DNA of 64,000 nucleotides. It comes from Geosiphon pyriformis uo1 (Eukaryota; Fungi; Glomeromycota). Position 1 is the stretch's first letter, and each line of letters begins with the position of its first letter. Below, piece after piece: positions 13,309 through 54,950 of the stretch. A program made the position numbers and the translations under genes. The notes under the pieces were generated by a model that was not told the DNA's origin, ran no database searches, and worked only from the letters and a program-made list of their open reading frames with translations. Where the stretch lies: NCBI GenBank assembly GCA_016748015.1, contig JAAOMT010000168.1, positions 76,190 through 140,189 of the forward strand, read 5' to 3'.

Positions 13309-13495
13309 TTTGGTACTCTCTGTAAGGTATAATCTAACAGAAAACTAATTATTTGTAATATTTGATGCTTTCTGTAAGATATAATTCAACAGAAAACCAG
13401 CATTAACAACAACCATACAGAAAAGTAACAGACCAAGAGAAAACAAAAAAAAATCACTTAGGATTTGTGAAATTTTTATTTTAGTATTATTTTTA

Positions 13496-15411: not shown

Positions 15412-18400
15412 CTAGTGCTAATGTAATAAACCCTTGTATTCTCCTAATAATGAATGTAAATTCTGTCTAATCTATTATAAAGATTGGGAACCTATTAGTC
15501 TAATACTCAAAGAAGAACTAAAAAAATACAAAAGTTCTTTGAAAATAAACCACCTGAGATCTAATCACTTGCAATAAAATATAAAAAACTTTTCTTTAAA
15601 GAAAAAAAAATAGACATTAAAAATCTGTTGGTTAGAAATAGCCCAGTTATTTAAAAAAAAAAGGATACCTCTAAATAAACTCATATATTATAATATATCA
15701 TTACTATCAAAAAAACTTACTCCATTTATTTGAAGCCTTATCAATCTAATTAATACAATAATGAGTTTATTAAAAAAGAGATAAACTGAATAAAAAATCT
15801 TGGATTTATACAAAAAACCAAAAGTAAATGGACTTTCTTAGTTATAGTAGTATCCAAAAAAGACAGAACTCTATACTTCTGTGTTGATTATTACCAATTA
15901 AATGCTATTATTATAAGAGACATATACTTACTTCCCAAAATTGATGTAATGCTAAACAAATTCAATAGTACTGCTTTTTTTTTAATCATTAACTTAACTG
16001 CTGAATTCTGGCAAGTAGAAATAGATCCAGAAAACAAAAAAATAACTGTCTTTATTACCAAATATGGCATTTATGAATTTACAGTTATGCTTTTTGGTTT
16101 TACTAATACTTTTTTTATTTTTTAATGTCTAATAAACAAAGTGTTTAAATTAATAAAAGAAAACTTTGTTTTAATTTATTTAAATGATATAATAATATAC
16201 TCAAAAACCTGAAATAAACTTCTTAAACACTTGCAAAAGATTTTTGATCTTCTTAAAAATACTGGTTTTAAGATAAACCTAATTAAATTTTTTTTTGAAT
16301 AACAATTTTCCCAGTTTTTTGGTTATCTTATTACAAAAGATAGAATCTTTCCTGATCCAGCTAAAGTTGAAAAAGTCTAAAACATTAAACAATCAATAAA
16401 TATTCCTAAACTATGCTTTTTCTTTGGTTTGGCTTTTACTATTACAAATTTATTAAAAATTTCTCTAAAATTGTCTTTCCTTTCAATTACTATTCAGAAA
16501 AAATATTAATTATTACTGGAGCATTTATCAACAAAAAGCTTTTGAAACTCTAAAAAAAAAACTTATTACTATACTAATATATCTGGTTATAGATTTGGTA
16601 CTGTTTTTTCACAAAAAAATAAAAATAACAGAGAACATATTATAGCATATGTCAGTAGAACGCTCACATCAACAGAAAAAAACTATTCAATTACTAAACA
16701 AAAATGCTTAGCAGTAGTTTGGGCTACTAGTTATTAGAATTAATATCTTTTTGGTGTAAAATTCTTAGTGATAACAGATTATTAAGCTTTGGTTTAGCTA
16801 TATAACAAAAAAAAACTAGAACATAAATAGATAACTTGCTAAATACTTTACTTAAATAAATTCAACTATAATATACAATACTGCAAAGGAGCAAATTATC
16901 AAAACACCAATGTTTTTTCCAGACTTACTATCCAGTGATAGTACAATCTTTCAACCAAATCATTTTAATTATTAGTATTTTTTTCTTTAACAAACATGAT
17001 AATAGACTTAGATAACTACTCTGCCTTAATAAAATTTTTAGATAAAAGACAATATCTATTAGACTACACTTAATAACAAAAAGAACATTTATACAAACAA
17101 TCAAATTTTTATTTGATTTGCCAAAACCAATTATATAAAAAAAATTAAAAAATTCTAACCACTTTTAGAGAATCATAAGATTTGAGGAAAAAGAAATTGT
17201 AATATACAACATACATACTAATCTATTAGCTAAACACTTTGAAAAAACTAAAACAATTCAAAAAACTTTAACTTGCTATTATTGGCCTACTTTGGAAAAA
17301 GACATTGCTGAGTACATCAAAACTTGTAATACTTGCCAAAGAAAAGGAAAACCTAATTGTCAAAAAGATATTCATCTAATCTCTGTTGGTCAATTATTTA
17401 ACAAAATTAACATAAATGTTATTGGACTCTTAATAATAACTTTTGATGACAATAAATATATTATTACAGCTACTGATTATCTTACAAAGTGAGTAGAAGC
17501 AAGAGTCACTCCAGATCAAACAGCAATCTTAATAGCTAATTTCATTTATAAAGATATTATTTATTACTATAGCTATTTCAAAAAACTTTTATCTGATAGA
17601 AAAAGAGCTTCTCTCAGTATACTAGTTAAAAAACTTTGTAGAAAAATGAGAATATGTTATAAACTTTCTTCCTTTTATCACTCTCAGACAAATAACCTAG
17701 TGAAATATTTCAATAGAACACTATGTAAAATCTTAACCAAAACCAGTAAAAAAACAAACTTATAAGACAAAGTACTGTCTTTAGCTTTGTTTGTTTATAA
17801 AACTGTGAATCATGACATAACAAGTTATGAACTTTTTTATCTATTCTATAAATACATAAAAACACTACTAATAGAAACTGATATTGAAACAATACTTTTT
17901 AAAGAAATCACAATAGGAAATTACAAAGATATTTTGCAAAGAAGATTTGGTATTATTCTTAACTCCTTGGTAGAAACACAAATAATTGTCTTTGAAAAAA
18001 TAAACCAGTTCTAAGAAAAGCTTAAAAAAAAAAAAATCTATAAAACACTTTTTTTAAGTATTAGTAACTTAGTTTTAAAATATTGCTTAGACAGAAACAA
18101 TATCTATGGTAATAAATTCTCTAACCAGTAAAAAAAACACTTTTTAGTTAACAATGTTTTGAACAATAGTTCTTATATCTTACAAAATTAATATAAAACA
18201 ATCTTTAATAATTATCTTGTTCATGATACATAACTCAAAAAATATTACTAACGATCTGATTAGTTATCTGTTGTAGTAATACTAACCCAAATGATTAGCA
18301 AAAATTAGATATAAATAAATACACCATTTTCAAAACAGAAATATTTTCAATTAACATGAACAATCATTTTTTGGATTAAAATATTCAAAATGGCTTCTAT

Positions 18401-19645: not shown

Positions 19646-22600
19646 ATAGCAAGTTATTTATTATTATTACTAATATATTAAGTCAAGTATTAAAAACACT
19701 ACTATTACAAAAAAAATCAAATAAACAAGAACATCTAATAATATATGTTAGCCAAAGTTTGAGTTTAACTAAAAAAAACTATAACATTCTAGTATTGAAA
19801 TACTTAGCTATTTATTAGACTGTTATCAAATAAAAGAAATACTAAATTTAAAAGTTTAATGTATATACTGATTACAAAAAATTGACATCAATTTAAAAGC
19901 AAAAATTTGGAGATAAATATCATATAAAATAAAAAATAAAATTAATACTATTTAATTATACAATACACTATAAAAAAGGAAAAAAAAATAAAAATACTGA
20001 CAGTTTGTTATAAATAAAACAAATCTAAAAACATTTTAATCCAAAAATATAACAAAAAATAAATACTCAAAAATATTAACAACTTCAATATTATATAAAT
20101 ACTTAATAATTTAAAGAAAAATTATCTCAAAAAAAACAAAACAACATAAAACAACAATCAAAATATTTTATTACTTATCAAAATATATTATATCAGAAAA
20201 ACAGAAAAGATACAAACCAGTTATTTAAAGTAATTATAGAACCAAAAAAAAAAACAATACTGTTTAACATACACTTAAATTTAACTATAAAACATTTTTA
20301 TAAAAAAGTAATTATAGAAAAAACCAGAAAAAAATACTATTAGTCATTAATATATCCAGATATCATTCAATATGTTCAAAATTGTAATGTTTTTCAAAGA
20401 AGAGAAAAAACAAAACACAGCAACTACTAAAACTAATCAAAGTAGAACAACTATTTGATCAGATTAGAATTGACTTAATAAGACTATTAATAATAACCAG
20501 CAAAGACAACTAATACATAGCAATAGCCATAAAGTATTTTATAAAATAGTCAAAAGCTAAAGCCATTCAAAGAGCAAATGCAAAATTTATAGCCGAATTT
20601 GTATACCAGAATTTGATTTGTCGATCTAAATATCCAAAAAAATTGTTATCAAACCAAAAAACTTATTTTGTAAACAAAACATTAACAGAATTAAGTCAAA
20701 AATTTAGAATTAAAAAACTATTATTATTTTTATATTATCTACAAACAAATAATTTAATTAAAAAATTCAATAAAACATTATGTAAAGCAATAATCAAGAT
20801 CAGTCAAAAAAACCAGAACAAATGAAATTTGTTTATACTATTAGTATTATTTGCTTATTGAACAATAAAACAAGATACTATATAAGCAATATCATTTGAA
20901 CTAATTTATAATAGAACAACAATATTACTAATTAAAATAAATATCAATACATATTCAACAAAACCAATAACAGAAGCCAATTTTTAAGAAAAATTGCTAA
21001 GAAAAACATATAACTTAATAGAAACTTTAAAAAACAACAGATAAAAAGCAGTTAATAACATACAAAAGTTACAAAAAAAACAACATAATAATCAGTAACT
21101 AAATAAACTGGTCGAATTCAAAATTAGAAACAAAGTACTTTTATATTATTCTAAAGTAAAAAAACAATAGAGTAGAAAGTTTGGTTCCAAATAAAATAAT
21201 CTATTTTACATTGAAAAATTCTAGAAAATAGAACTTATAAATTAAGATAAAACAATAAAATTTTAACCAAAACAGCACATAATAATTAACTAAAATTAGA
21301 TTACAATATAGTATTATTATTTACTAGTAATATTCTATAATTAAAAGTACAGAGAATACTAATTAAATCAGATAAAATTTTACAAGATTTAGAACCAATT
21401 ATAATCATCTAAAAAACATGAAAAATAGATCAAGATAAAAATATATAAAGACACAATATATGTAATAAAAGCAATAGTAAAAGATAAAAATCTTAGATCA
21501 TATTTATACAATAACACAAAAATTGTTTTAAGTCATAAATTAACAACAATTGAACATAAAAATTATTATAAATTATTAAACAATTTGTTATAAAAACACA
21601 AAAAAAAAATTACTTTATATTAGTAATTATAAAGCCAAACAAAGCATTAATTAGATAAAATTATAGAAAAAATAAAAAACACTTTTAGAAAAATACCAAT
21701 AAAAGAACTAACTAAAAAAGACTAAAAGTTATAAATAAAACAACTTTTAATAGCATATTATTATTATAAATTAAAACAAAAGCTAAATATTCAGAAGTTA
21801 TATACTAATAAATCCAAAAAAATGTTTAATTAAGAAATAGTACAACAGATTAAAGACTTTATTAAAAAAAAGACAAGTTTTATATTATATATTAAAACAA
21901 TTTATTAATTATATATCATATTTTAAAATTCTTCAAAAATACTATTATATTTAAAAATAAAAATAACCAACTTTCAATTCGAAAACATAAAAACCAGAAT
22001 TGAACAAACAGTATTAGAAAAAGAAGTAATAGACTTAATTCAAAATAAAAATTTCAACAGATCTTAATATTGAAGAAAAAGATAATATTACTTATAAAAA
22101 AAGAGCACAAAAAAAAATAAAGAAAAGCAAATTATAAAATAGACCAATAGAAAAATAGTACTCAACAAATAAACATATTTTTAAAAATGTGTATATTCTC
22201 AAAAAATAAACACATTTTCAGAAAATCACAGCACATTTCCAAAAAATAGTACAAATAAAAAGTAAAAATGTATAAGATCTTATATAACACAAATTATGTA
22301 TATATTGTAAGAGTATTAAAAGCAAAAAAGACAGAACAGTAGTTAATAACAAGTAATTATTTAATATTTCTCTTTTTAAAAGATAGTTTGCTATAATTTG
22401 AAGTAAAATTATATTTATATCTCAATAAAATACTCAATTATTATTTAATTTATGTTATTATTACTTAATTAAAAATTTTTATTCTTTTTATATTATTAAC
22501 AATCAATGTTAATAGAATATAATACTTAATCATACTAGAACAATAGTTTTTGATTATAGCTATTGACAAGATATTAATTTTTTATTTTTATTTTTTATTT

Positions 22601-32979: not shown

Positions 32980-33340
32980 ATAAATTTATTTACAATTAAT
33001 AATAATATATTTTTTAATTTGATATTATTATAAAAACATAAACCTATTAGTGTTAAAACTGATGTTTTAAAAACAGTCAAATGGCTAGTTAGATTGGTTA
33101 ATAATAGTGCTATATTGTTTAAAATTATTCAAAAAATATTTTCTTTAGATAAGTTTTTTTTTAATGTATCAATATAATATAACTTAAATTAGCTTAAATA
33201 ACTAATTATATGTAAAAAGAACATAAACTGTATTTAACTTTAAAATACTTAATTTGTTTCTAATTTCTAAATAAAAATTAGATTATATATATTAAATATA
33301 TAATAAAAAATAATAAATATAAAAATAAAATAAAAAATAA
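32980..33340 (+). mobile_element. 5'-truncated ORF1-only LINE derivative (ORF1 C-terminus, 3' UTR, A-tail)
   Basis: Translates ...KPISVKTDVLKTVKWLVRLVNNSAILFKIIQKIFSLDKFF; inverted homologue of 35135-35460. Confidence 0.75.
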
Positions 33341-33344
33341 AACA

Positions 33345-34890
33345 ATTATTTATAACTAATTTTTGTTTTTTTATATATTATTAAAATTATAATTTTATAA
33401 GTTTTTTATTATAAATTTTAATATTTATGTTTATATAATATAGATAATATAAAAAATATTTTGTATTTTTATTTATAACTAAAAAAATTAAAAAAAATTT
33501 ATTTAATATTATTTGTTTTAATACTATTTTAATCTAAAAAATAAAAAAATATTAATAATTTTTCTAAAACTGTTATTAATATTATAATATATTTTTTTAA
33601 GATTAATTTGAAAATTAATATTAAGATTTATAGTTTGTTGTTTTTAATTTTAACTAATATACAAACTATTATTTTAATACTTATATATATTTTAATATTA
33701 TTTAATATTATAATTTTTTTTGATAACCAAGTATTTTAAATACTTATAATATTAAGTTAATATTAAAAGACTCTAATTTTTATAATAATTGTTAAATTAA
33801 ATACTATTATATTAAGAATTTAATTAAATTTAAAAATATTTTTATTAAATAAGTAAAAGTTAAAAGTTATTTTAATGTCTTAAACAATAAACAAACTAAT
33901 ATATTGGCTAATTTGATTATGTTTTTAGTGTTTATTTTTTCAGCAATTATTGAAAAAAGTTTTTTAATGATGACTAATTAGATAATTTTTAGTAATATAT
34001 TATTTTATTAAATGTTTTTTATAAAAAACTTGTCTAAATTTTAAGATTATAAATTTTTTATTTATTAATAATATTAATTGATATCTCATTGTTTTGGTTT
34101 AATACTCTAATTTTTATATAGCTGTTAGTTTTATAAATAAATTTATTATTAATTTATATATATATTTAATAAAAGTTTTATATAAAAGATTATTAATTAC
34201 TATTAGAAAGTAATTATATAATAATAAATATTCAAATATATTGCATATACAATATATAAAAATGAAGTTTTTAGATCAATTCTTTATCTATGATTCAAAT
34301 TTGTTTATTTATTAAAAATTATTAAATAAATAATTTTTTATTTAAAAATTTTTAACTAGTATTAATTTTGGTATTTTTAATAATGTTTTAATTATTGGTT
34401 TTAGGTTTTTTTAATATTAGTTTATACTTAATTTTATGTAAAAAGTTTATTTATAAAAATTAGTTAATAAAAACTAGAACAGTTTTTAATAATATTAAAA
34501 TTATTATATTAAAACTGGTTAATTTTGTATAAAAATTAGTTATTAATTATAAAGATTATATATAATTATCTAACTTAAAATTGCAAATGATAATAAAATA
34601 AAAAAAATTATTAAGTAATAATAATATGATATGTATTAATATTTCAGATATTTTAAAATAATGTTTTATAACATTATATTTGTTAAAAATAATTAAAAAC
34701 AAATTATTAGTTTTAAATTAAGAATTAAATACATATTTTTCTAATATATTTGTTAATATAGTTTTATAGTATTGTTTTAATTAGCCAATTGGCTAATTAT
34801 TTATAATAAATATATAAATCATATTTAATTTAAAACTTTAAATAGTTGTATTATATTAGTTAATAATTAAATTTTGCTTATAAAAAAAAA
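33345..34890 (+). mobile_element. Extremely eroded LINE 3' relic (RNase H / C-terminal region, 3' UTR)
   Basis: V*YSNFYIAVSFINKFIINLYIYLIKVLYKRLLITIRK (~34097-34210; cf. VWHPDSHMAAGFTSRFTANLCSYFIKTLYHYLLVAVRK); 3' UTR TAGTATTGTTTTAATTAGCCAATTGGCTAATT ~34767 and A-tail ~34882. Confidence 0.78.
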
Positions 34891-35134
34891 TTATTAAAAT
34901 CATTTTTTTCTAATTTATAATGTTTTAATTATGATTTTATTATTTTTATTGTTTATAAAAAAGTTTATATTAAAATATTAATATGTATTTTATTTTAAAA
35001 TATATTAAAAAAATATTAATGATAAAATATAATAAAATTAATTATTTATTATATCAAAGTTTTTTAAAATATATAAAAACAATATTTTAAATAAATTACT
35101 AAAAAATATTTTTAAAAAATTAACAAAAAATATA

Positions 35135-35562
35135 ATTTTTTTTTAATTTTATTGAGTAAGGATTAATTATTATCTAAAAATTAGAAACAAACCAAGTATT
35201 CTAATATTAAATATAGTTCACATATTTTCTATATATAATTAGTTACTTAAACCAGTTTAAACTATATTATATTGATATTTTAAAAAAAAATTTATCCAAA
35301 AAAACATTTTTTAAACAATTTTAAACAATATAACACTATTACCAAACAATTTAATTAGCTATTTAGCTGTTTTTAAGACATTAGTCTTTATAATAACAGA
35401 TTTATGTTCCTAAAATAACATTAGATTAAAAAACATATTATTATCAACAGTAGACAAACTTATATGAAAGCCAGATATATTAATATCTTCATAGCCAAAC
35501 TCAGTTGTTAAAACAACTACTTTCTATTCTAATTTATTAATAGTCTTATTAAAGATACTCAT
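35135..35562 (-). mobile_element. ORF1-only LINE derivative, 3' segment (split from 45721-47580 by the Gypsy insertion)
   Basis: ORF1 C-terminus, stop at 35267-35269, LINE-type 3' UTR (..CCTTACTCAATAAA) and A-tail on the minus strand. Confidence 0.8.
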
Positions 35563-36423
35563 TGTTACTTATAGAAATATAGAAAATATATTAGCATGAT
35601 TATTAAACAATCAGAAATAGGTATAGTAAATGTGGAATTCCAGGATTCTTCTCAGAAATTACAGGATTTCAGGAATTTCAGGATTCCCCGACGAGAAATC
35701 ACAGAATTCCAGAATTCCAGGATTCCTCTCAAAGAAATTGCAGGATTTCTGTCATAAAGAATCGAGGAATTGAGGAATCTCAATTATGTATATATAGCAG
35801 CAAGATTAGAAGCTAAAAAGACAGACCTCTTAGTTTTAAATTTAATTTAAGCAACTCTCTAAATTACAATCATCTAATAAATAACTATTTGTTATCTCAA
35901 ACCCATTTCCACTATCAACACTTTATGTTAATAGTAATTGATACTTAACCACACTAAAACAATAGCTCTTGATTATGGCTATTAATGAAATACTAACTTG
36001 CAAATTGCCTTGGCTTATTTCTTTTCTTTCTTTATTTTATTTTCTTTTCTTTATTTTCTTGCTTTGATTTTATTGTTGTTTACTAACTCTATTGAGGATT
36101 AGCGCACAGAGCACTAATGTCAGGATAAACATGACTGGTAAAAGACCCAGAAATAAGAGTAAAACACTCGATTGAGAATAGCTTACCAGGAGAAATACTG
36201 GCCATCAAGCTGAAAAAAAAATTGATGAAACTGCAGTTTTGGGAAGCTATGAATAAAACTATCACCATTGAATCTCTGTCCATTATACAAAAAACTCAAC
36301 CAAACCCTTCAAATACAAAACCTTTAGATACCAAACCTTCAGATCATCGACAATAAGAATAACCTTAAGCACCAAGTTACAGGTTTGTATTTAATTCAAC
36401 CTCAGAAATTGTTACTTGTAACA
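35563..36423 (+). repeat. 5' LTR
   Basis: TGTTACTTATAG...CTTGTAACA; direct repeat of 44867-45720. Confidence 0.96.
35633..35800 (+). promoter_or_regulatory. LTR U3 array of GGA(A)TT(C/T)CA motifs followed by TATA-like TATATATAG
   Basis: About 10 short motif copies; TATGTATATATAG conserved in all family-A LTRs; function inferred from position. Confidence 0.55.
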
Positions 36424-36442
36424 TTTGATGCTTCCTGTGAGG
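36424..36442 (+). promoter_or_regulatory. Primer-binding site
   Basis: TTTGATGCTTCCTGTGAGG directly after the LTR; variants at 13309, 13361 and 25744 give consensus TGGTGCTYYCTGTGAGG. Confidence 0.85.
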
Positions 36443-36485
36443 TATAATCTTACAGAGAACCAGCACCAACAAACACTATTCAAAA

Positions 36486-39400
36486 GTGGCAGAATCAGAA
36501 AACATAAGAGCAAACCATTTAGGATTCACAAAATCCCTATTTCAATACTATTGTCAACACTTGAGATTAAACTACAATTATATATCTGCCAAATCAGTCT
36601 TTAATTTCTATGTCAATGAAAAAATTTCCTCTTTGTTAGGAACACCAGTGAATACTAAATCAGCCAGAGAAACTTTCTACAGAGAATTAATTCAAAATAC
36701 CAACCTGCCAACAAATCACAATTTTGCCTCCATCATTACTGAGATCAACAAAGAAATTGAATATTACACCCAACAAAGATATCCAATTACTTATGCTAGT
36801 AAAGGCAAAGAAAAACTACAAACACCAGCGGTAACACCCAAAAGGATACAACCACCCATTTGGAAGAAAACAAGAGCTGAATCACCAACTGCTCCATCTT
36901 ATCACTACACACCAGGAAGCGCCATCAATATAACATCAGCAAGTGTGTCCATATCAAATGCAATATTAACAATCAAACAATTCCCATTCCAAAGTAAACA
37001 AAGAAAAACAGATCTACTAGAACCATATGGCAAATATTTTGAAGGATTTAAGTCATAATCACCAACACCATCAGGAATTCAATTACTGCTGCCTCAACTG
37101 GACTTTGGAACCATTACCCTATGGGAACTATCTGAAGAAAAAGAAGAAAAAGAATTAGAAGATCAAGAATTTACTTACCAAAACTTGATCCTTGAAAACC
37201 TGGAATTTGAAACCCCAAACGTTCAAACTCAGTGAAAAAATCCAGAAATTGAAACTCCAAATATTCAAGCACTGCAAAATCAAAACCCCAAAGTAATTAA
37301 TCAATACTTACCTCCAGTTATCATCATTAATCAACCACCAGTTGAACCAATTGGTCAGCCCATCCAAATACTGAACCAACAAACTCAACAACCACCCCCA
37401 GTACCACCTCAACAACAACAACAACTTCTACCACAGCAACAACAACAAATGGCATACGCATCAATCGCAAAGCTCAACAAATTTACCGGCAAAAAGGACG
37501 ACACACAAGTTTGGCTAAATAATGTAGAAAAAGCCATCGCAGCCAACGGATGGAATAATGCCAGAGCCATGCAAGTCATATCTTATTTTCTCAAAAATAC
37601 AGCAGATTCATGGTATCAAAGCCTGATTGACAAACTCCAAGATTTCAATGCCTTCAAATTAGAATTTTTGAGATACTTTAGCAATAACAACAGCATCAAT
37701 AGATTAGCCAACACTTTCATTACAATTAAACAAAGAGAAACTGAAGCAGTTACCACATATCTGGGACACTTCCATAGAAATCTGCAACAAATTCAAGCAA
37801 TTGATGCTAATTATTTTACAGCGCCACAAATTCTCAATCAATTCATCCGTGGTCTGTGCAGTAGCATTCTGTAACACTTACACCCATTGCATCCAGCCAC
37901 TTTCCAGGACACAGTCACATATGCCAGAGATTTCAAATCTGCCAAATTAGAAGCCAATCATGCTCACGCTGTGAACCTAGTGATGAATGGATCATCTGAA
38001 TTGGATTTTAAATTGAAACAAGTCAGTAATTCAATTAATCAGAAGTTAAAAGAATACTTAGCTGACAATTGCGCAATTTATCAACCACCACAACAATACA
38101 ATAATCCAAAAAATGCGAATTGTTTCCAAAATCAGTCACATCCATCATTATTATCAGCAGTACCTAATCAGCCATGACAGCCAGAAACACGTGTTTGCCA
38201 CAACTGTGGTAAACAAGAACACATAAGAGCAGACTGCAGATTTTATAGCAACAATTCACAATCAGGAAATCAATATTGAAACCTCAATCACAGATTTCAA
38301 ACTCCAAATTGTTATCCAAATCAAAATCAAACTACTTACCTGCCAATAATGCAGCCACCAATCTATCAGCTGCCAATATATCAACCTCAAATTTATCAAC
38401 TGCAGCCACCAATAATCTATTAGCCACAACCCCAAATAATTTATCAATCCCAATCAATTCAGACACTGCCCCAAAATTCAGTTAATATGACATCAGGCCA
38501 CCTCAAACCTAGAATTACACAAAACTGGAGATTGGCAATGATTGTCCACCAACTGATCTCCAGTTCTTTTAACTCACCATCAGAATTGCGTTCTTGGAAT
38601 TCGGGTACTGGTGCCACCCAAAACCTGAATTCTCAGAACTATTTAAGTCTCTTAGTTATCCCAGAAGATGCCACCAACACCAATTTGGGATCTAACCAAC
38701 AATTAACACTCACCAGCAATATTCCACCAGCCACCGTTACAGAAGACAAGTTACTCGCAGCCATATCCCCATTTGAAATTGAGGAACCATCAGAAGTTTC
38801 TTTGTTCAACAGAGTCACTATTGAGGAAAAACCCATCACAGCGATATACACCGATGCCAAAATTAATGGCCATTTCATCAAGCTCATTCTTGATAGTGCG
38901 TCAGCAGGCAGCATTATCACATGACAACTTATGGACCAATTAGGTCGCCGAGTTGATCATGTTGCCAGTGCCAAAATTATAACAGCTGATGGAGCAACCA
39001 AAACTCCTATTGGTGAGATTAACAATCTACCCATTGAAATTAATAGCATCACTGTACCAATCAAGATATTAGTAATGGAAGCAACCCAGTACCAAGCTCT
39101 TGTTGGCAACAACTGGTTGTTTAAAACCAATGCAATACTCGACTGAAACACACAGGAACTCCAACTTAGCCAAAATGGCCAATACATGTGAGTACTGGCC
39201 ATGTGTGGCCATTTTAAATCTAACAACATCACATTATCAATGCCGCTTATTGATTTTGAAAAGGAAAAACCAAAGCTTACTTGGGAGATGTATCAAGTAT
39301 CATGGGCCAATGTCGAGCACAACAAGCTACCGCCAATTCTAGACTGGGAAGAAAGGAACAATGTAAAGAGAAAAGAAACAGAAACAGAAGAACATACCTG

Positions 39401-42400
39401 TGAAACCACTATTAATATCTGGAATAATGACGATGAAAGTAAAGCAATGCCAACCAGCTGAAAAGAAAAAGGGAAAGGAAAGGAGAAAGAAGAAGACTTA
39501 TCTGGAAAAGCTAACGAAGCCATAGAAAAAATAACCAGTGACTAGGAAAGAGAATATTTACATAAACCAGTAAAGAAGTCACCTTACATTCTCTTAAAAT
39601 GTCAGGACTGTAAGAAAAAACTCTCTTCTATGGAAGCATGGATCATGCCAGACGAAGACTACTGGACACGAACCCACTACTACTGCAAACCATGCCATAA
39701 AGAATGCTATAGTTATCCAAAATGACAAGGCAAGTGAGACAACAAACCATGTCTCGCTTGTGGCGAACAGTTACTCGATGAAGAAATGTGGAACGACATT
39801 CCTGGTTGAGGAGGAACATGCGACGCTTCATGCTAATACATGATCTTTATCAGCGATTGAATAAGTTACAGCATGCCAATAACAGCTGCTTGGCACCAAG
39901 CAATATCTCGCTTAGAAGGTTACTCACATGATGAAGACAAAATCTGGTGAATGGCCAATGCCAAAGTAGAGGACGCTTCGCCCAGTGAGATTCTAGAGAT
40001 CAAGAACAACTTTCCAGAACCAACAAACATTGTTTTGGTTCTCAACCCAGATGCCTTTCTCAACTTAGAAAACAGTCCAGAAGAATTCCATGAACACTAT
40101 CAGAACTTAGCACTCATCAGAAAAAAGCAGAAACAAAGATTAAAAGAAATAAACACTTGACTATGTGACTATTGTTTGATTCCATGTGACTTCTAATATT
40201 GTAATAAGTGTGATCTTATTTACAATCCACCACCACGCATGATCTACAAGATTTCCAAAAAGGAAGAACCAATCAGCAGCTGCACATCAGAATCAGAATT
40301 GATTTTCAATTCCAATTTAAACTCTGACAAGAATGACAACGAAAACACCGGTTTCAGCTCTATTCAAAATGACATTAACAATGACAACAATTCCAACTCA
40401 GATCCAAACTTTGACCCAAAATATGAACAATATATTGCACTGCCAGACCTCTCCAAAGAACAGAAGTTGAAATGATATAGTGATAATAATGAAGATATCA
40501 TGCCAGAACATGCACACGATACTGATGCTGGATTTGATCTGAGATATCCAGGAAAAGATGCCATTAAATTGGAGCCAAACATGTGAGTATGCATTGATCT
40601 GAGAATAGCTCTAGAGATCCCAGCAACAACCATGGTTCTGTTAGCATCTAGAAGTAGTTTAGCAAAAAAAGTGATTAATATTAGAGGGTAAATAGTGGAT
40701 GCAGGATATATAGAAAATATTAGTGCCATGTTACAAAATGACTCAGAAAAAGCTTACACTATTGAGCCAAATGAAAAGATAGCACAGGCCATATTCCTGC
40801 CACTAGTCAAAGTAGCTAGCTTAGTGTCAGTGGGAACAAGAGAGAAATTAGGGATAACAGCAAGAGGGATACAAGAATTTAGATCAACAGGTAGAATAGA
40901 TATACCAGTTAATATGACAGAGGAAGAAATTGTTGGCCAAGGAAAAATTATCTCAACCGGTCAAACTATTTCCATTTCACTATATAGCCAGTACATGCTA
41001 GCAATAAAAAGGAAGGAAAAAGAACAGAATCAGATTTTTGAAGCAGAACCAACTCTTTGCAAATCAGGAGAGATTGGACTCATCAATCTCCATATACCAG
41101 CCAAAGATTACAGCCACATCAAAATTTTTATCTACAACAACACAGGAAATGTCATAGTGATACCAGCCAGAACCACTATGGGATACTTAAACACTGAAAT
41201 AGAAGATCAACCACCAAACTCCATTCCAAACTTTCCACAGCTTTGTGGATATGTCGACATCATATCACAAACAATCTATGAACAAGACAAATGTTATTTG
41301 CTCCAACCAGAACAATTAGAACAAATGAACATGGGAAATCTAGACCTATTACAACGTATACAGCTCAAGATGTTACTCAACAATTACAATAATATCTTTG
41401 TCAGCAAAAACAAATTTGGCAGAACTGACATCATCCAACATCAAATCAAGACTGGAGATGCAATGCCAATCAAACAGCAAGCATACAGAGTACCACCAGC
41501 CAGCCATGAAATTATTCATCAAGAAATCAACTGAATGCTTGACAATGAGTTAATTCAGCCATCAATGAGCCCATGGTTGTCACCAGTAGTACTCGTCTGT
41601 AAGAAGAATGGAAAGATCCGATTTTGTGTAGACTACAGGAAACTAAATAGTGTAACTCATGGAGACAGTTATCCAACTCTATAGATACAAGAACTATTCG
41701 ATGCTTTTGGTGGAAACAAATGGTTCTTAATGTTAGACTTAAATAATGGTTACTAACAAGTAACCATGGATCCAACCAACAAAGAAAAGATGGCATTTAC
41801 CACCAGAGAAGAGAATTTTGAATTTAAAGTAATGCCATTTGGCTTAACCAATGCACCAGCCACTTTCCAAAGACTAATAGAAATTGTTTATATGGGTTTA
41901 TTGTGGAAATCAGTAGTTGTATACTTGGATGACACTAATGTATTTTCAAAAACATTTGATGATCATCTTCATCATCTTCAACAAGTGTTCGAAAGACTAA
42001 GAAAAGCAGGACTAAAGTTAAATACAACAAAGTGTTTCTTTAACAAGACAGAACTAAAATTCTTGGAACACATAGTCAGCAAAGACAGCATCAAAACAGA
42101 TCCAGAGAAAATAGAGATAGTAAAGAACTTTCTAGTGCTGACAAATATGACAGAACTGAAATTATTCTTGGGATTTGCCAGCTATTATTGATGTTTTATC
42201 AAGAACTTTTCCAAGATAACACAGCCACTCAACCAACTGCAAACCAAGAATACAAAATATGAATAGACAGAAAGTCAACAAGAAGCTTTTGATATTCTGA
42301 GAAGAAAGCTCATTCAAGCTCCAGTACTGATCTATCCAGATCACAGCAAACCATTCATCATTACTACTGATGCATCTGGCCAAGCATTGGGAGCAGTATT

Positions 42401-42725
42401 ATCTTAGAGAGGACCAGATAGCAGGGAACATCCAGTAGCATATGCCAACAGAGATTTAACACCAGCCGAAAAGAATTATGAAACACTGGAACAAGAACAC
42501 TTAGCAATATACTGGGCAGTCATGAAATAGAAAAAATACTTGAGCCAAAAGTTTGAAGTATACACAGATCACAAAGGATTAACATCACTTCAAAAACAAA
42601 AATTTGGAGATGGAAGACAGTTAAGATGGAAAATGGCACTCATACCATATAATTATACTATACATTATAAAAAGGGAAAAGACAATGGAAATACTAATGG
42701 TTTGTCACAAATGAGACAAATCTAG
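36486..42725 (+). pseudogene. gag-protease-dUTPase-RT-RNase H polyprotein, one reading frame, internal stops
   Basis: ORF-track pieces 36486, 37449, 37887, 38487, 38931, 39201, 39951, 40239, 40695, 41766 and 42540 are all in the same frame; capsid (VWLNNVEKAIAANGW), CCHC CHNCGKQEHIRADC 38196-38237, LILDSAS, FCVDYRKLN, YLDD, TDASG, YTDH. Confidence 0.93.
40500..40895 (+). pseudogene. dUTPase domain within the Gypsy polyprotein
   Basis: All five trimeric dUTPase motifs: DAGFDL, ASRSSLA, IVDAGY, KIAQAIF, RGIQEFRSTG. Confidence 0.92.
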
Positions 42726-42786
42726 GAACATTTCAACCCAAAATATAACAAAACCAGAACAATACCAACAAAAAATATAACAAAAG

Positions 42787-44169
42787 ATGAACATACAAAA
42801 ATATCAATAACTGCAACATTATATAAACACTTAACAGTTCAAGAAGAATTTATCTCAAACAGAATGAAAGAGTATCAAACAACAATCAAAATATTTTATC
42901 ACTTACCAAAATATACTTTATCAAAAAAATAGAAGAGAGCTAGAACAACCAACCAGAGTAATTACAGAGCCAAAAAAAGAGACAATATTATTTAACATGC
43001 ACTCAAATCCAACAACAGGACACTTTCACAAAGAAGCAACCATGGAAAGAACCAAAAAAAAATACTATTGGCCATCAATGTATCCAGATATCATCCAATA
43101 TGTTCAAAATTGTGATGCTTGTCAGTGAAGAGGAGGTACAAAACCCAGTGAACCATTAAGACCAATCAAAGTGGGACAACTATTTAACCATATTGAAATT
43201 GATTTAGTTGGACCATTAATAATTACCAGAGGAAGAAACAGATACATAGCAGTAGCCATGGACTATCTCACTAAATGGCCAGAGACAAAAGCAATTCAAA
43301 GAGCGGATGCAGAATCCATTGCCAAATTCATTCATCAAGATTTAATTTGTCGACACGGATGTCCAAAGGAATTATTATCAGACCAAGAAACTCATTTTGT
43401 AAACAAAACATTAACAGAATTGAGCTAAAGATTCGGAATTAAGAGATCACTATCATTATCATACCATCCACAAACCAACAGATTAGTTGAAAGATTTAAC
43501 AGAACATTATGTGAAACAATAGCTAAGCTCAGTTAAGAAAACCAAAATGATTGGGACGTGTTAATATCAGCAGTACTATTTGCTTATCGAACAATGAAGC
43601 AAGACACTACACAAGCAATACTATTTGAATTAATATACAGTAGAACAGCAATATTACCAGTGGAGATAGAGGTCAACACATATCCAACTGAACCAATAAC
43701 AGAAAAGAATTTCTAAGAAACATTATTAAAAAGAACATATAACTTAATGGAAATATTGGAAAACAAATGAAAAAAAGCAGCTGATAACATACAAAAGTCA
43801 CAAGAGAAACAGAAAAAAAGACATAATAATCAACTATCAAACAAACCAGTTGAATTCAAGATTGGAGACAAAGTACTCTTACATCATACCAAAGCGGAAA
43901 AACAATAGAGTGGAAAATTTGACTCCAAATAGAATGGACCATTTCACATAGAAAAAATTCTAGGGAATAGAGCTTACAAATTAAGACTGGACAACAAAAT
44001 CTTAACCAAAGCAGCACATAGAGATCGACTGAAACCATACCACAACACCATACTACCATCCACCAGTAATATTCCACAATTAGGAGTACAGAGAATACTA
44101 GTCCAATCAGATCAAATTCCACGAGATCTGGAACCAATTATTATTATTAACAACAACACATCAAATTGA
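42787..44169 (+). pseudogene. Integrase (HHCC, DDE core, GPF motif), separate ORF
   Basis: ATG 42787; HSNPTTGHF, CDACQ, IDLVGPL, SDQETHF, LVERFNRTL, GPFHI; ends LEPIIIINNNTSN*; no chromodomain visible. Confidence 0.92.
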
Positions 44170-44193
44170 TCCATCAAAAAAATATATAAAGAC

Positions 44194-44853
44194 ATGGTAA
44201 ATATGACAGGAAATATCAGAAAAATAGAAATTACAGACAACATTCACTCACTAGTACAACAACTTTTTTAATTGATCCAACACCAGGAAATAGAGATTAT
44301 AATCAATTAACAAACCATTCGATATCAAGATACTAGAAAGACATTGCAATCTAGAACACAGAAGAAAACTGAAAATACTGTGGACAAAATCATTGTGAAA
44401 GTAAAATTAGCAATAAGAGAGTTGACAAAAGAGTCACTATATCAAGAATTGACTAAAAAAACTTGGAATTAGTAGATACAACAATTTTCATGAAACTATT
44501 GTTATTTTTACTTGGGACAACATGTAAATATCCAGAATCTATATATAGATAAAACAAAGTGATTATTTGACAAAAAAATACTACAACAATTAGAACATTT
44601 TGTGAGAAAGAATAACTTATCCACACAGACCTGAGCTATATACCAAATATACACAACATTTCAGGATAGACCAGAAATATTACTCAACAAAGCAATAAAT
44701 ATGGTTATCAGTAATCAATTGGGAAAGATTACCAATGCTCAATTTGAAGAATTACAGACCCAAATAACACAAGTAATTTTCAAAAACAAAATCCAGAAAA
44801 TACTTCAAGAGGGGGAATTATATGAGTTGGATTTCAACAGAGCTCAATATTAA
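44194..44853 (+). pseudogene. ORF3 of unknown function (~219 codons) between integrase and PPT
   Basis: ATG 44194 and TAA 44851-44853 in frame; internal stops consistent with single transitions; homologous segments in three other elements. Confidence 0.75.
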
Positions 44854-44866
44854 AAGGAGAGAATAA
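44852..44866 (+). promoter_or_regulatory. Polypurine tract
   Basis: AAAAGGAGAGAATAA immediately before the 3' LTR. Confidence 0.88.
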
Positions 44867-45720
44867 TGTTACTCATAGAAATATAGGAAATATATTAGCA
44901 TGATTATTAGTCAATCAAAAGTAGGCATAGTAAATGTGGAATTCCAGGATTCCTCTTAGGAATTGCAGGATTCCAGGAATTTCAGAATTCCCCAACAAAG
45001 AATCACAGGATTCCAAAATTTCAGAATTCCAGGAATTCCAGGATTCCTGTCATGAAGAATTGAGGAATTGAGGAATTTTAATTATGTATATATAGCAGCA
45101 GGATTAGAAGCTGAAAAGACAGACCTCTTAGTTTTAGATTTAATCTAAGCAACTCTCCAAATTACAATCATCTAATAAATAACTATTTGTTATCTCAAAC
45201 CCATTTCCACTATCAATACTTTATGTTGATAGTAATTGATACTTAACCACACTAGAACAATAGCTTTTGATCCAGCTATTGACGGAATACTAACTTGCAA
45301 ATTGTCTTGGCTTATTTCTTTTCTTTCTTTATTTTATTTTATTTTCTTTATTTTCTTGCTTTGATTTTATTGTTGTTTACTAACTCTATTGAGGATTAAT
45401 GTGCAGCACACTGACATCAGAATAAACGTGACTAGTAAAAGACCCAGAAATAAGAGTAAAACACTCAATTGAAGATAGCTTACCATGAGAAATACTAACC
45501 ATCAAGCTGAGAAAGAAATTGACAAAACTGTAGTTTCAGAAAGCTACGGATAAAACTATTACCATTGAATCTCTGTCCATTATACAAAGAACTCAACCAA
45601 ACCCTTCAGATACAAAATTTTTATATACCAAACCTTCAGATCATCAACAATAAGAATAGCTTTGAGCACCAAATTATGAGTTTGTATTTAATTCAACATC
45701 AGAAATTGTCATCTGTAACA
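44867..45720 (+). repeat. 3' LTR
   Basis: TGTTACTCATAG...TCTGTAACA. Confidence 0.96.
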
Positions 45721-48174: not shown

Positions 48175-50114
48175 ATGAACCTGATGGGCACTTCTGCTAA
48201 TGACTCTGGTTTAGTTTCAGCCAGTTTGGAAACCTGTCAAAGTGTGAAAAAAAAACATGTAGATATGATCTACTCTAAAGGTACATCCTATAAAAAGCCA
48301 AAAAAGTCTATTGTCAATGATATGGTTAACTCATCAGCTAAACTTTTGAGCATAGAAAATATTGGTTGCACTGGTGTCAAGCCAGTAGTGTCTTAGAAAA
48401 GTGAGGTTGGCAGTGTTACTAACAATGTAAGTAATCTCTCAGATGTTAAGAATATGGCAAACATAATGGCCAAAGAAATTAGTTATGTAAAATCAAATGA
48501 AGACAATAATATAGACAAGACTACATCAAGAAAAACTTGCACTTAGATGTACGTGCTGGGCAACTTACTAAAGCAACTTTTTTTTGAATGTATGAGTAAT
48601 GACAAAGTTGTGCTGAAGCTTCCTCTTTGTGTAAATAATAGGTCCAATCAGTTGCCACTGCTCGAATTATGTGTTCTGGGAATACAAAGTTTTAATTTGA
48701 CAAAATCTTTTGTGCTTGATATCAAGCTTTCTGTAGTACCAGACAAATCAGTTAGTGATAAATTAATTTCAATAAAAAAAATTTTTTATTGAGTGAATGG
48801 TTTTGAAAAAGTCTCAACTCTCTCAAAATTTTCAGAGATCATCAGATCTTCTTTTACATCTGAGTTAAGTCTGAATAAGGCTAAAAAATTGGCAATCTGT
48901 GAGAAAATTTTGGTAAACAATGATGTTAGAAAGCTGAGTATTTGTTCAAATCAGGAAGTGATTGTCAAAAAAATTCCAGTCAATCTTCTCAAATCAGCTA
49001 TAGAATCAGTTTTTTCTAAATTTGGTAAGGTAGTTTCAATCAAGATACAACTGATTGGTCTTTGGCAAAAGCTTTAGTAGAGTTTGAGTCATCTGAAGTT
49101 GCTAGCTTGGTTGCCAAATGGTCAGTTTTTATGGGAAAAGATTCTGTACATGTGGCTTTGACTGTGAATGATAAAGAATCATAGGTAATAAGGAATCAGC
49201 ATCGAGCTTTGCTCTACACTCTTCTTATTGGTATTACTGCTTATGATTTGTCAGGTTTGTTGGAATCATATAATGAGAAGACTTGTTTTATTGGTCACAA
49301 TTCAAGCTCATATGTTTGTAATAGATATGCAGTGATTTGTTTTGAGAATAAGACATCTAAATTGGCTGTTATTGGTTCTGTTCCAGTCTTTAAGAGTGTG
49401 AATTTGCATTGGGCTGGTCTTTTTTTGGCCTGTTGTGTCAAGTGTAAACAATTTGGTTATATCTTTAATGTGTGTTTGATTGGTGAGAATTCTGGAATTT
49501 GTGTTAAGTGGGTGGTAACTGATCAGAATTGGGTTTGTTTGACCAGTATTTATAAAAAGAAACAGGCTCTTGTTATCTGTCCAGTCTTTTTTGATAGTAA
49601 AACTTGGGCTCAAGTTGTTGGTGGTTTTTTATTTCATGTGGCTCTCTTACTTCTTTTTGGTGCTAGTCTGTTTTCTGGTCCCAAGACCTCTTCATTTGCC
49701 TCTGTTTTCTCTAGTGATTTTGACTTGTATGACCATTTGGCATCTTTGAAATGCTCTTTGGAGCTTCTGGCAGACCAGATTTCTGGTATTTTAAAAAAAA
49801 TGAGTTTCACAGAATTGGTACCCCTAGTGATCACTTTTAAAGTCTCTTTTCCAGTTATTCTTGTGTCTGTAGTCTCTAGTTTGAAGTCGGATATGGCTTT
49901 GAATGGTGCATTGGTGTTTTCTGCTCTTCCTCTTCCAGTTGTCAATGATACAGTTACTGATTTAAGTTTAAGTAATACTAAGGTTTTGACCACCAAAATT
50001 GGTGGTCTGAAATCCAAGATGGTAGCTTTGAAGGTGTCTGTTAAATCTGTTTTAAAGAAATGAGACCATTTGTGCTTGGGTTTGGATTCATTGGCTTTTT
50101 TTTCTTCTCAATAA
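48175..50114 (+). pseudogene. LINE ORF1 (gag-like, CCHC knuckle relic)
   Basis: ORF-track 48175-50063; IESVFSKFGKVVSIKI RRM-like segment; CVKCKQFGYIFNVC. Confidence 0.88.
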
Positions 50115-53100
50115 TTGATTTTGTCTGAAAAATTGTAACATATAATATAAAAGATATGAAAAATCCTGCAAAACAAGAGAATATTGTGCAATAGCATAAA
50201 GACATAAACAATCTGATCTCAATTTTTATGAAAACAAAGTTAAAAAAAAATGTATGTTTATGGATTGTCAACAAATTTGATGGCATTTGAATGTTTACTT
50301 CTGGTTTGGATTCTGGATATCTGGGTGCTAGAGTTGTGGTCATTATGAGTTTTTCTTTGGCAAAACATGTGTACAAAGTTTTCAAAGTGCCTGGCTGGCT
50401 TTTATTCATAAAATTACTTTTCAAAAATAAACTTTCTGTGTTAAATTTGGGGCTTTATGCTAGTGTTTTTTTGGCAGTTTGGTTCTATTAGGCTGATGAT
50501 ATCAATTTTTTTATTGCAAAGACTGTTAATGAATCTTTTTTTATCATTCTTGGTGGTAATTTTAATGAAGATGGTTCTCATAAATATGCAAGTTTTAAAA
50601 AGTGCCTCAATTTGGAACTGGTTAATTCTTTGGTTAGAAGTCTGATTGTAAAAATGCCCACTTGGGTGAATTCTAGAGGTGTTATAAAAACGATTGATTA
50701 CATGTTTGTTTCTTCTAATCTGGTCAATGCAATAGTATATTGCAATGTTTTGGAAATCGGTAAGCATTTTGACATGGATTACCAAGCTGTTTTTCTGTCT
50801 GTGGGTTTGGATAAAATTTTAAATACGCAATTGAACTCTTTTTGCAAACAAGTAAACAAAAACAGGTGGAAGTTTGATTTCAAAAATGCTGATAAAAATA
50901 AATGGACTGATTTTAAGAATGCCATACTAGCCAATACAACTATGTTCCTAAACGAGTTTGTTGTCTCTACAAGGTCTTCAGATTTGGATGCAATGTGGTA
51001 TGTCATTCACAGGATAATGATTCTTTTGGCTAGTGGGGTTTTTAAGAAAAAATGATTTAAGGACTTTGATAGTGTTTTTACCAAAGAATTTTCAAGATTT
51101 CATAAGTTGAAACTTTTGGTTTCTAAAATTGTTAAGGCCTCTCATAAGGAGAGTATTGTGAATTTTGTTTTCTTTATGAAATGCTGGGATTCTTTGAACA
51201 AGGTCAAGGCTTTGGTCATTTAAGATCTAGTGAATTTTAGTATAGACTCTAATCATGTTTGTTTTGCTCTCTTTGGTACCAGAAAGTCTTATCATGCATC
51301 CAAGTTTGCTAAGTCTTTGAAAGCTAAGAAGATGAATATTAGATCTGCCATTGATAAGAGGATGGAAAGCTTTGAAGTAAATAAAGGTCATACAATAAAG
51401 AGTGTGTTAGAGTGTTTGTTTTGTAAAGTGGTGCTTGACCATTTGGTTGTTAATAATAAACTAATTCTGGGACCTGAGTTGGTTAAGTCTAAGGTAGATG
51501 TAATTATGAAAGGTTGGACTAGGAAGCATCAAGTGGTTGATGACATCACTGATAAATAGTATCATTAATATTAGCTTTTGGAGTATGTTTTTAATGAAGC
51601 TTTTTCTGGAATAATGTGTTTGATCAGTTTTAATGAATTGTTTGGTGTGGTTTTCAATCTGCCAGAAGGCAAAGCTGCCAGTTTGTTGGATATCTCAAAT
51701 GAGCTTTGGAAACATTATAATAAGTCAGTACTGGATATGCTTTTAGTGCTTTTAAACTCTTATTTGTCTAGTGAGTTGGTGCCAGGTTTGTGGAAAGAGA
51801 CTTGGGTCTTAATAATTCCCAAATTATATGAATAAGAGGGTGTTCTGACAAATACTCATTCCATTACTTTAATTGAAACAGCCCAAAAGATTCTTTCCAA
51901 AATTCTGTCTGATAGGATTTCTTCAGCATGCAGTGCTTATAGTGTTCTTCATAAAAACAATTTTTCAGTTTTAAAAAGTACAATGACTTAGTCTTTTATT
52001 TTTGTGATTGGTTTAGTGGTTAAAAATGCTTTGGAAAAGAACTAAGAGCTCTGGCTAGTTTTGCAAGACATGCAAAAAACATATGATTTGGTTAGCTGAG
52101 AGCATCTTAAGAAAAGTTTGATTAGGATTAAAATGTACAGCAAATTCATTTATTTTTTTGATAGTATTCACAAGGATTATATTAACTGAGTTATAACAGA
52201 TTTTGATTTAACAGATGGATATTTTGTTCATGATAATTTAGATCAGGAAGAAGTTTTTTCTTCTCTTCTGTAATACATATTTTATAATTCTCTGCTGTGT
52301 GAAGTCAAGCATCAGAAAAGTGTGTGTGGGTATAGATTGAACTCTCATTTTGTTTTCAGAAGTGATTATATTGAATCCCAAACAGGACTTTCTTTTTTTT
52401 TGCTGCTGGTGCTTTCATTAATGATATAATTTGGGTTGGTAGCAGTCAGATTGCTACTCAACATATTCTTAATATTGCCAGTAAATTTTTTCAGATCAAT
52501 GATATCTCAATTAAATAATGATAAAACAGTGGCTATTTCTATTAATTGCAGAGTTAGCAGTTCTTCTCTTTTAATTAGTGATTCACCTATCTCTATCACC
52601 AAAAAGAGAGAATCTTATCAGTATCTGGGTATTTTTCTTTCAACTGAGGGTCTTATGAAGCCTAGTTTGGCCAGGGCATATTTGGACATTCATTTTTTCA
52701 TCAATCTGGTTCTAAAAAAAGCTGTCTCAAATAAACAGTTTTTATATTTGGTGTTAATAGTTCTCCAATCCATAGTTAACTATAGAATACAGTTTAGCTT
52801 TGTTTCAATTAGTGTGTACAACAGATGAAATGCTCTGATTCATAAAGACTTAAAGCTTAAATCTGGTCTGCCATCTGATTTTTTCAGTGATACAATTCAC
52901 CACTCTTCATTTTATGGTCTAAAGTCTTTTTCAAAAGTTCAGTCTGAGTGTAAGGTTGCTTTTTTTATTGGTTTTGTAAACTCTGGTGAAATTTTGGGTT
53001 ACTGGTTTTCTCACAAATCTCATAACTTGCAAGTTCAGTATTGGCATCTTGTTTATCTATTAAGTTCTTCTGTTCATATTTATGTCAGTGCTTCTAATAA

Positions 53101-54794
53101 CTTTTTGGTGGGCATGATCTGTATTCTTCTTGATTGCAATTTGTTTTTGAATGGCTTTTTAGCCAATTTTTTCTGATTTTGCAGTAGAGTGTTCATGTCT
53201 ACTGTTCTAGATAAGTCAAAATTTTTTAAGTTTTTCTCTTTTCTCCGAAGGTATGACATTGCTTTTGTGGATCAACTTCATGATTGTTATGGTACTGTCT
53301 TTAATTGGTATACTTTTAAGCAGTGAAAAAAACTGGATCCCCATGGTTTTATTCCTAAATGGTTTAAGCTTTCTGTTGTGTTTTTTGATGATGTGATTTC
53401 TTCTCCTACTGGTTCTTCAGCTTTGAGTGGTGTTGGTTTTTTAAACATACTTAGGTCTAGTGATTATGCTTGTGTTTGTAATCATCTTTCTTGGGTTGGC
53501 TCTAGTTGTTTATCTGTATACATAGATGGATCTCTGAAGAAGTTGGGCACAGCTGGCTATAGAGCTGGTGCTACTGTTTTCTTCAAGAACATTGATATGA
53601 GTTTGGGCATTGGTATATTGGGTTTGATGTCATTCACTCTGGTAGAACTGCAGGCTATTGTATTGGCTCTTAAGTGTGTCTTTTATCTAGTTCTGTTCAC
53701 TTGTTTTTAGATAGTCAATTTGCTTTGGATACTTGTAAATTAGAATTTAGTCTTGTGTGTCCTAATTTCTGCAATCAGTGTTAGATTGAGCATCAGCATA
53801 TTGTTAATATCATTTGTAGTAAGAATTTGAGTATCAATTGGCACAAGATTAAGGGTCACTTTGGTGTTTCTGGAAATGAGCACACTAATGTAATAACTAG
53901 TGCTGCTTCTTTTTCTGGTTGGCGTTTTTCTTTTTGCTTGGATAAACGTTTTATAGTGGCTGATGATGTTGTTGTTTCAAGCAATTTTAGACACTTTGTT
54001 TGTGATATTTATTGCTCCATTTGTTATGCATGTTGGGAGATTGGTTTTAGTTCTAAGTTTTTAACAAGTAATCTGCTTTCTGAGATTGATTGGCCCTGCT
54101 CTTTACTGGTGTGGCATCCTGATTTGCATATGGCTGTCAGTTTTATCAGCAGGCCCTCAGCTAATACATATACTTCATGAAAGCTTTGTATTGTTGGCTG
54201 CCTATTGCTGTTCAGAAATGCTTTTATAACAGATATTATGTTAGTGTGTTGTATTTATATTGTGACAATGTGGAGATTTCAAATCATATATTTTTTTATA
54301 AGGTTAACAATTCTGTTTATCATCAGATATTAGACTTTTATATGGTTTCTTGGAAGACTCTTTCTGGTTTTTCTTATTTATTTTCAAGTGTGTTACAACT
54401 GTTGTCATCTTGTGTTTCTGGTTCCTCAGTCTTTATGGCTCTTTATAAGAATTTTGTTTTTAATAATTGGTTTTGTAAAACTGTTTCCATATTTTATGAT
54501 CACAAGGTTGCTGGCTTAAAAGTTGTTAAGTTTGTGTGCTTTCTTGGTTTCATCTTTAAAAATAATATTTGGCTGGTTCGTGCTAAACATTGTGTCTATA
54601 TAGAGAAGGCCAAATTGATTTTATTAGATGGTTCAGCTTTAGTGTTAGTTTCTGGTTTGGCTTTGGGTTTTTCTGCTGGTGTAGTTAAGTTGCTTGGCAT
54701 TACTAAGGCTATGGGCATTTGTTTTGGTTTTTGCAAATTTTGTTTATTTTTTTCTGGTATAGGTAATTTAGTTTTGGTTTATATAGCTGCATAG
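50111..54794 (+). pseudogene. LINE ORF2 (APE-RT-RNase H)
   Basis: GGNFNE, TIDY, LQDMQKTYD, YIDGS, WHKIKGHFGVSGNEH, VWHPDLHM. Confidence 0.92.
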
Positions 54795-54950
54795 TGGTGT
54801 TCTGATTGGTTTGAGTGGCTAGTTACTTGTAGAAAATACATAATTCATGCCTAGTATATAATTATTTCTTTGATGTATAGCATTAGGCTGTGTTTGGGCC
54901 TTACTCGTTAAATGTTAATATAAAAAAAATAATAATAATAATATAAAAAA

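Follow-up and report, generated by a model that had tools for sequence, protein, structure and literature searches.

An apparently separate integrase gene in Gypsy LTR retrotransposons of Geosiphon pyriformis and related elements

The window analysed here is a 64,000-nucleotide stretch of the genome of the fungus Geosiphon pyriformis uo1 (contig JAAOMT010000168.1, positions 76,190 to 140,189 of the forward strand). It is AT-rich and poor in CpG (observed/expected 0.12), and it contains a decayed Ty3/Gypsy LTR retrotransposon, referred to as copy 1 of family A. The parts of copy 1, in window coordinates, are the following:

35563-45720, + strand: whole LTR element, from LTR self-match and domain order
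35563..36423, +: 5' LTR (TGT...ACA), self-match to 44867-45720
36102..42725, +: decayed frame for gag, protease (PR), dUTPase, reverse transcriptase (RT) and RNase H (RH), without a frameshift, from six-frame translation and Pfam; 37 stops
37455..38240, +: Gag capsid region and CCHC knuckle (PF03732, E 1.6e-10; PF19259 and PF00098 below cut-off)
38853..39119, +: aspartic protease (PF13975, E 2.9e-08)
40497..40877, +: dUTPase, between PR and RT (PF00692, E 3e-16)
41601..42722, +: RT and RNase H (PF00078, PF17917, PF17919; alignment)
42723..42786, +: Pol stop and A-rich 61-nt spacer without ATG (30-nt family spacer plus 31-nt duplication)
42787..44169, +: free-standing integrase (IN) with N-terminal YPYY-like region, HHCC, DDE core and GPF/SH3 region (PF17921, PF00665; PF24626 below cut-off)
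44170..44853, +: ~230 further codons in the same frame, integrase tail or a further ORF, present in copy 2 too (E 1.8e-19)
44852..44863, +: polypurine tract, a purine run 3 nt upstream of the 3' LTR
44867..45720, +: 3' LTR, self-match to the 5' LTR

Copy 1 has the direct LTRs with TG...CA ends, the polypurine tract and the order gag, PR, RT, RH, IN that characterize Ty3/Gypsy elements. Its two LTRs were identical in 763 of 861 columns when compared with each other, and transitions made up 83 of the 91 mismatches. The GPF form of the GPY/F motif is visible in the integrase translation, where PF24626 scored E 1.8e-05 and 25.2 bits, under the cut-off of 30. Close RT matches all have the Gypsy domain order, in a tree drawn without a named reference set or outgroup, and those close homologues that carry a name belong to Rhizophagus and Cetraspora. 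The flanks match in three of four letters (a target-site duplication of 4-6 bp is expected), and no clear tRNA primer site was found in the decayed copy. Copy 1 departs from the canonical layout in that the integrase lies outside the Pol ORF. Chromovirus identity was rejected, as no chromodomain matched in Pfam at E 0.1 in the decayed 693-codon integrase frame. Troyka, described with CG...CG termini, no GPY/F and a single Gag-Pol that includes integrase (PMC12440569; like the other papers cited here by accession, drawn on in excerpt), was rejected because of the TG...CA ends and GPF found here.

The original prediction that gag and pol are joined without a frameshift was upheld: one frame runs from ~36102 to 42725 with Pfam domains in the order gag, zf-CCHC, protease, dUTPase, RT and RNase H. 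The frame begins inside the 5' LTR, with no start codon assigned in the six-frame translation. It opens ~320 nt within the LTR (window 36102-36423; 45399-45720) and ~450 codons upstream of the capsid domain, and related LTR copies at 13071-13490 and 15175-15411 retain similarity to the LTR part of the frame. A Cys/His-rich insert of several hundred codons without a Pfam match lies between protease and dUTPase (window 39500-40300). Fungal Gypsy elements with a dUTPase at the same position have been described (PMC2864245, PMC6431247), but those have one or two ORFs with the integrase inside Pol. At its other end the element had been drawn with an integrase stretch reaching 44866, which proved too long: the integrase frame closes at TAA 44851.

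Other repeats share the window. A third family A fragment (25286-29546, +) extends from gag to a point before the dUTPase and an integrase fragment lies at 32218-32976 (-); neither reaches the junction studied here. Long decayed inverted repeats (29692-31263 and 32951-35492) are 72-79% complementary. Another repeat is present in three or four decayed copies (1-4000, 7900-12400, 48700-53000, 54200-59800), which carry ORF remnants and the opposite strand skew and are possibly LINE-like.

The polyprotein was expected to stop right after RNase H, and in copy 1 it does so at TAG 42723-42725, a few residues past the last RNase H motif in the alignment. The polyprotein frame contains 37 stops in 2208 codons and the integrase frame 19 in 694; with 36 other stops in the same frame, the single stop of copy 1 is weak evidence for a split. 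The junction of family A was checked by aligning contigs of run X1 (4434 on copy 1 and 1497 on copy 2), which may come from the window's own sample; runs X2 and X3 contributed one and zero records. In these contigs the Pol stop is mostly TAA, with 42725 G>A in 301041 of 302982 depth. In the copy 1 alignment no T>C was present at 42723 among the best 40 of 101 variant rows, and 8 of 19 T>C rows lie outside those 40, so a minority Gln codon may occur at this position. Decay stops within the integrase revert in the family contigs (42808 T>C in 199382 of 200266; 42832 in 160878 of 187983). The Pol stop is kept while decay stops revert, which points to a family-wide break more than to chance. Two further junctions lie in the window:

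20026..20061, +: copy 2 of family A; stop TAA, then a 30-nt spacer in frame that holds another TAA, then a decayed start codon (alignment, family contigs)
16936..17004, +: family B; stops TGA TAG, then a spacer in frame; the integrase probably starts at 17002 (or at ATG 16996)

The claim that the stop is retained near 20026 with a shorter spacer was borne out by TAA 20026 and its 30-nt spacer, with the integrase in frame with RNase H. Over all 11 variant places of the copy 2 alignment there was no indel at 2% or more and the second in-frame TAA (20050) was invariant; older alleles expected at 20029 and 20077 are missing from the alignment, which therefore says little on 20026. At the copy 2 integrase start the family contigs read ATG in 192226 of 324344 depth. 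The norm of family A is a stop, 30 nt and an in-frame ATG, with a second stop between. An integrase beginning 61 nt on, in another frame, at ATG 42787 is accurate for copy 1 (+1 frame) but not as a family trait: against copy 2 and the family contigs, the 61-nt out-of-frame spacer reflects a 31-nt duplication peculiar to copy 1. Family B had been said to show the same split. In its favour are the stops at 16936, 12 best RT matches that all lack integrase, and codon 17002, probably a decayed start, which aligns with residue 1 of free integrases; its junction is in frame, and one copy alone, more heavily decayed and with 3-5% of the nearby codons being stops, cannot show a split.

Relatives outside the window were compared from both sides of the junction. 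On the RT side, the set held 172 long proteins after multi-RT or partial-RT proteins had been dropped. The 21 best single-RT polyproteins all lack integrase, 19 of them ending within 28 residues of the RNase H profile end, and integrase is lacking in 7 of the remaining 151; the 22nd best, P0313, is fused. Of 81 loci examined, 37 have RNase H followed by integrase and 44 have no RNase H before the integrase. All seven metagenome loci in which both were present and the integrase core was at least 43% identical to P0001 are split; L007 has a stop in RT, and the others have open RT-RNase H and integrase frames. Among more distant loci with both domains, 16 are continuous; the other 14 have scattered stops or shifts that, on visual inspection, were put down to decay. 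Viral contigs yielded distant integrases only (29 loci).

On the integrase side, the homologue search returned 1025 proteins of 240-767 residues. A check for integrase-only proteins with a Met just before the HHCC region had been suggested: in 96 of the 120 best short homologues the first HHCC His falls at residue 67-73, and 95 of these begin with Met; ORF callers choose Met by design, so the evidence is the fixed position and not the Met itself. ATG 42787 matches this conserved start. By eye, the N-termini of the free integrases fit the ~40-residue YPYY motif that precedes the zinc finger. A search for longer forms with P0005 gave at least 45% identity in 5 of 120 proteins, versus 111 of 120 in the short-protein list. 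These five are NCBI gene models (P0121, P0122, P0126, P0140, P0141) that join RT/RNase H to integrase and mostly skip conserved residues at the RNase H end or the integrase start. P0140 and P0141 hold pieces of an integrase annotated alone as P0078, with residues 116-292 of P0078 dropped. The joins look like predicted introns. One true fusion was found on the integrase side, P0124 (44% identity). No continuous RNase H-integrase frame was seen in less decayed copies, as the family contigs keep the stop and the seven close relatives are split. With high confidence, the split between RNase H and integrase is a real trait of the lineage. The sequences indicate that it is not universal in the group, with the fused P0124 and P0313 lying in or beside it.

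The close relatives vary around the junction. L009 has 521 nt between Pol stop and integrase start (L009:868-1392), with a small ORF of ~80 codons. In L001, Pol runs ~310 residues past RNase H through a Cys/His-rich segment (L001:3506-4438) with matches in 82 representatives at E <=0.001. The gag/pol junction also varies within the group: in L005 (L005:2898-2916) the two overlap in different frames, and in L001, L019 and the window they are fused. A further ORF follows the integrase in L001 (5842-6330), L004 (2011-2481) and L019 (5951-6649), and likewise in L012; a counterpart forms the C-terminus of P0124, whose tail fused to integrase matches the L001 ORF (E 1.6e-13). From this arrangement, elements with an ORF behind the integrase may be polycistronic. 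Typical relatives of copy 1 end near the equivalent of position 44170, so its last ~230 codons may be an integrase tail or a further ORF; no match was found between them and the downstream ORFs of the relatives. The polyproteins of P0291, P0294 and P0308 have a NUDIX domain (PF00293) and those of P0296, P0298 and P0305 a dUTPase; perhaps these are interchangeable nucleotide-pool enzymes. Integrase precedes RT and RNase H in L046, L050, L057 and L060, an order that we take to be Gmr1-like.

Quick trees with SH-aLRT support were built on hand-chosen subsets (72 rows for RT-RNase H, 71 for integrase), in which the labels Athila/Tat-like and Ginger1-like for unnamed rows are our own reading. In the RT-RNase H tree, 26 of 27 split rows, the window included, formed one branch with the fused P0124 and P0313 (support 92). 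L019 fell in a sister branch with plant-type and other fused rows, and the whole group joined plant Athila/Tat-like rows at 96. In the integrase tree, the window, six other split loci, 22 free integrases and P0124 shared a branch (support 95), which P0313 and two Ginger1-like proteins (P0127, P0178) join only at a weak 81. The split may have had one origin followed by re-fusions, or several origins. YPYY-bearing Gypsy elements near Athila/Tat have the same TG...CA LTRs, PR-RT-RH-IN order and GPF motif (PMC2836005), and differ in that here the integrase is a separate gene. Tat elements also place a Pol-type enzyme outside pol, in their case an extra RNase H and here the sole integrase; how the separate-ORF RNase H of Tat could work from outside pol was asked by the authors (PMC10508981). 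Ginger1 resembles the present integrases as a free Gypsy-like integrase starting at the YPYY region, but it has terminal inverted repeats and no RT, in contrast to the LTRs, gag and RT found here (PMC2836005). Identity with Ginger1 was rejected on the presence of LTRs and RT.

How is the integrase expressed? A polyprotein stop before the integrase rules out release of the enzyme by cleavage of Pol and calls for another route, as the original prediction proposed; the fixed stop and the split relatives support this. The gaps in the seven close loci are -4 (an AUGA overlap in L019), 30, 62, 63, 74, 110 and 521 nt (L009), with two junctions in frame and five out; with the window families included they are -4, 30, 30, 57-63, 62, 63, 74, 110 and 521 nt. 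Because gaps and frames vary, the junctions have no one shared frameshift or readthrough signal, and a programmed frameshift was ruled out on these grounds.

The best explanation, given about an even chance, would be a split Gypsy lineage in which integrase is translated from the full-length RNA by termination-reinitiation; taken alone, this expression route falls slightly short of even. Ribosomes would finish the polyprotein after RNase H on the full-length RNA and restart at the next AUG, and low-level reinitiation would yield a small amount of free integrase. Stop-restart after long ORFs has been described in fungal victoriviruses, hypoviruses (CHV1), SART1 and LINE-1, with a LINE-1 spacer of 63 nt (PMC5972666). 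Like the element here, these systems have a long second ORF placed just behind the stop of the first or overlapping it; the excerpt of that paper includes no LTR-element integrase. Cistrons of this kind are defined by downstream translation that depends on termination close to the start; the correlates seen here are those of sequence. The spacers are poor in start codons: nine of them, 606 nt in total, hold one ATG where shuffles give 5.3-7.0 (P 0.004-0.011), a count that left out L009, L019 and copy 2; with L009 included (521 nt, 8 ATGs) the depletion is not significant (P ~0.06). Position -3 is a purine at 11 of 12 integrase starts, compared with 31 of 56 internal ATGs (P 0.02), and G at +4 is confounded by an Asp/Glu second residue. 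Reinitiation after an ORF of ~2200 codons normally requires a tethering element. No such element was found here, and a visual check of 10 upstream 80-nt stretches did not show TGGGA.

A less likely route, though one to be reckoned with, is a separate integrase mRNA, made from an internal promoter in the RNase H region or by splicing from the LTR or gag to an acceptor before the integrase start. Foamy-virus Pol is made from a spliced mRNA (PMC3705302). AUG-poor spacers and a strong start context resemble a 5' leader and fit such an mRNA equally well, so that it would account for the same spacer and start statistics, except for the AUGA overlap in L019, a signature of coupling. It would also cover any spacer length and frame, including L009, and fits the further ORFs behind integrase in L001, L004, L012 and L019. 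However, the spacers of L004 and L007 have no AG, so that an acceptor would sit inside RNase H, and an informal look noticed no common promoter or acceptor motif. On these sequence features the evidence leans to reinitiation over splicing or subgenomic RNA.

A hairpin was found to end within ~20 nt of the integrase ATG in six of 12 loci with upstream DNA (L001:4464-4500; L011:~490-540; L006:~172-215; L008:~8-45; L016:~14-62; L003:~22-60); in L011 it is preceded by sequence similar to the segment after RNase H in L001. All 30 cells of its inner 5-bp stem are paired, and every pair shows two-sided changes; pairing is 87% for the tested structure versus 22-44% in sliding controls, the six rows and the structure having been hand-picked. 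An Rfam search on nine loci gave no hairpin match (one chance match, E 2.2). A hairpin model run on 81 sources recovered only the six training loci and two matches at E 0.5-0.9, and the hairpin was absent from the window and 74 other loci. It lies between stop and start in L001, L006 and L011, where it could hinder scanning. The hairpin is a candidate translation or packaging signal of a subgroup and not of the window's family. In a reading that we consider improbable, the lineage makes free integrase, the hairpin of one subgroup launches its translation or loads it on genomic RNA as HBV epsilon does, and the lineage would be a living stepping stone from Gypsy to Ginger1 transposases. Still less probable is internal initiation by RNA structure just before the integrase start in at least one subgroup: the covarying hairpin without an Rfam match speaks for it, but its absence from most loci and its selection by hand speak against it, and ~45 nt is small for an IRES and may instead be a packaging or integrase-binding signal.

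Readthrough of the stop, or a splice across the junction, would yield a fused RNase H-integrase protein and is very unlikely. The junctions of family A, family B, L004 and L005 are in frame, that of L004 with a single stop, and the five NCBI gene models join the two parts. Against a fused product are two in-frame stops in family A and L005, the out-of-frame majority of metagenome junctions, and the loss, in most of the gene models, of conserved residues from the RNase H end or the integrase start. An origin of the break in decay or in assembly noise of dead copies is largely refuted and has almost no probability left, despite 1.6-6.9% stops per codon near the window junctions, low CpG and the 14 distant loci that score as split through scattered stops, since relatives free of such stops share the positions of end and restart, and the family keeps the Pol stop while others revert.

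A free integrase would also have to be packaged or otherwise reach the cDNA. Fusion of integrase to Gag-Pol is the presumed packaging route in LTR retrotransposons and most retroviruses, and genomic RNA can bridge an unfused enzyme, as for foamy-virus and HBV Pol (PMC3705302). Speculatively, free integrase would reach the particle in the same manner, bound to the genomic RNA that had encoded it; RNA-bridged packaging by this analogy is a tentative proposal, somewhat short of an even chance. Alternatively, and also speculatively, free integrase would meet the cDNA ends after uncoating. Foamy virus likewise has an enzyme unfused to Gag that is packaged via RNA or protein contact, but its Pol includes integrase and only the precursor is packaged (PMC3705302), whereas here integrase alone is separate.

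A Gypsy group with a separate integrase ORF was not found in the literature covered, and the excerpts of PMC3248453, PMC5751038 and PMC11075540 contain no such layout; supplements, Repbase Reports and most subscription journals lay outside this scope and may hold a description. The layout is a genuine variant of Gypsy gene organization that is widespread and apparently undescribed. It accounts for integrase-only and intron-patched gene models in Glomeromycotina annotations, in which split elements may be mistaken for broken ones or for Ginger transposons. Among eukaryotes it also offers a candidate for reinitiation behind a very long ORF, and it is relevant to the origin of free integrase-type transposases. 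A successful lineage without the Gag-Pol-integrase fusion is a natural system for testing how an unfused integrase can be provided.
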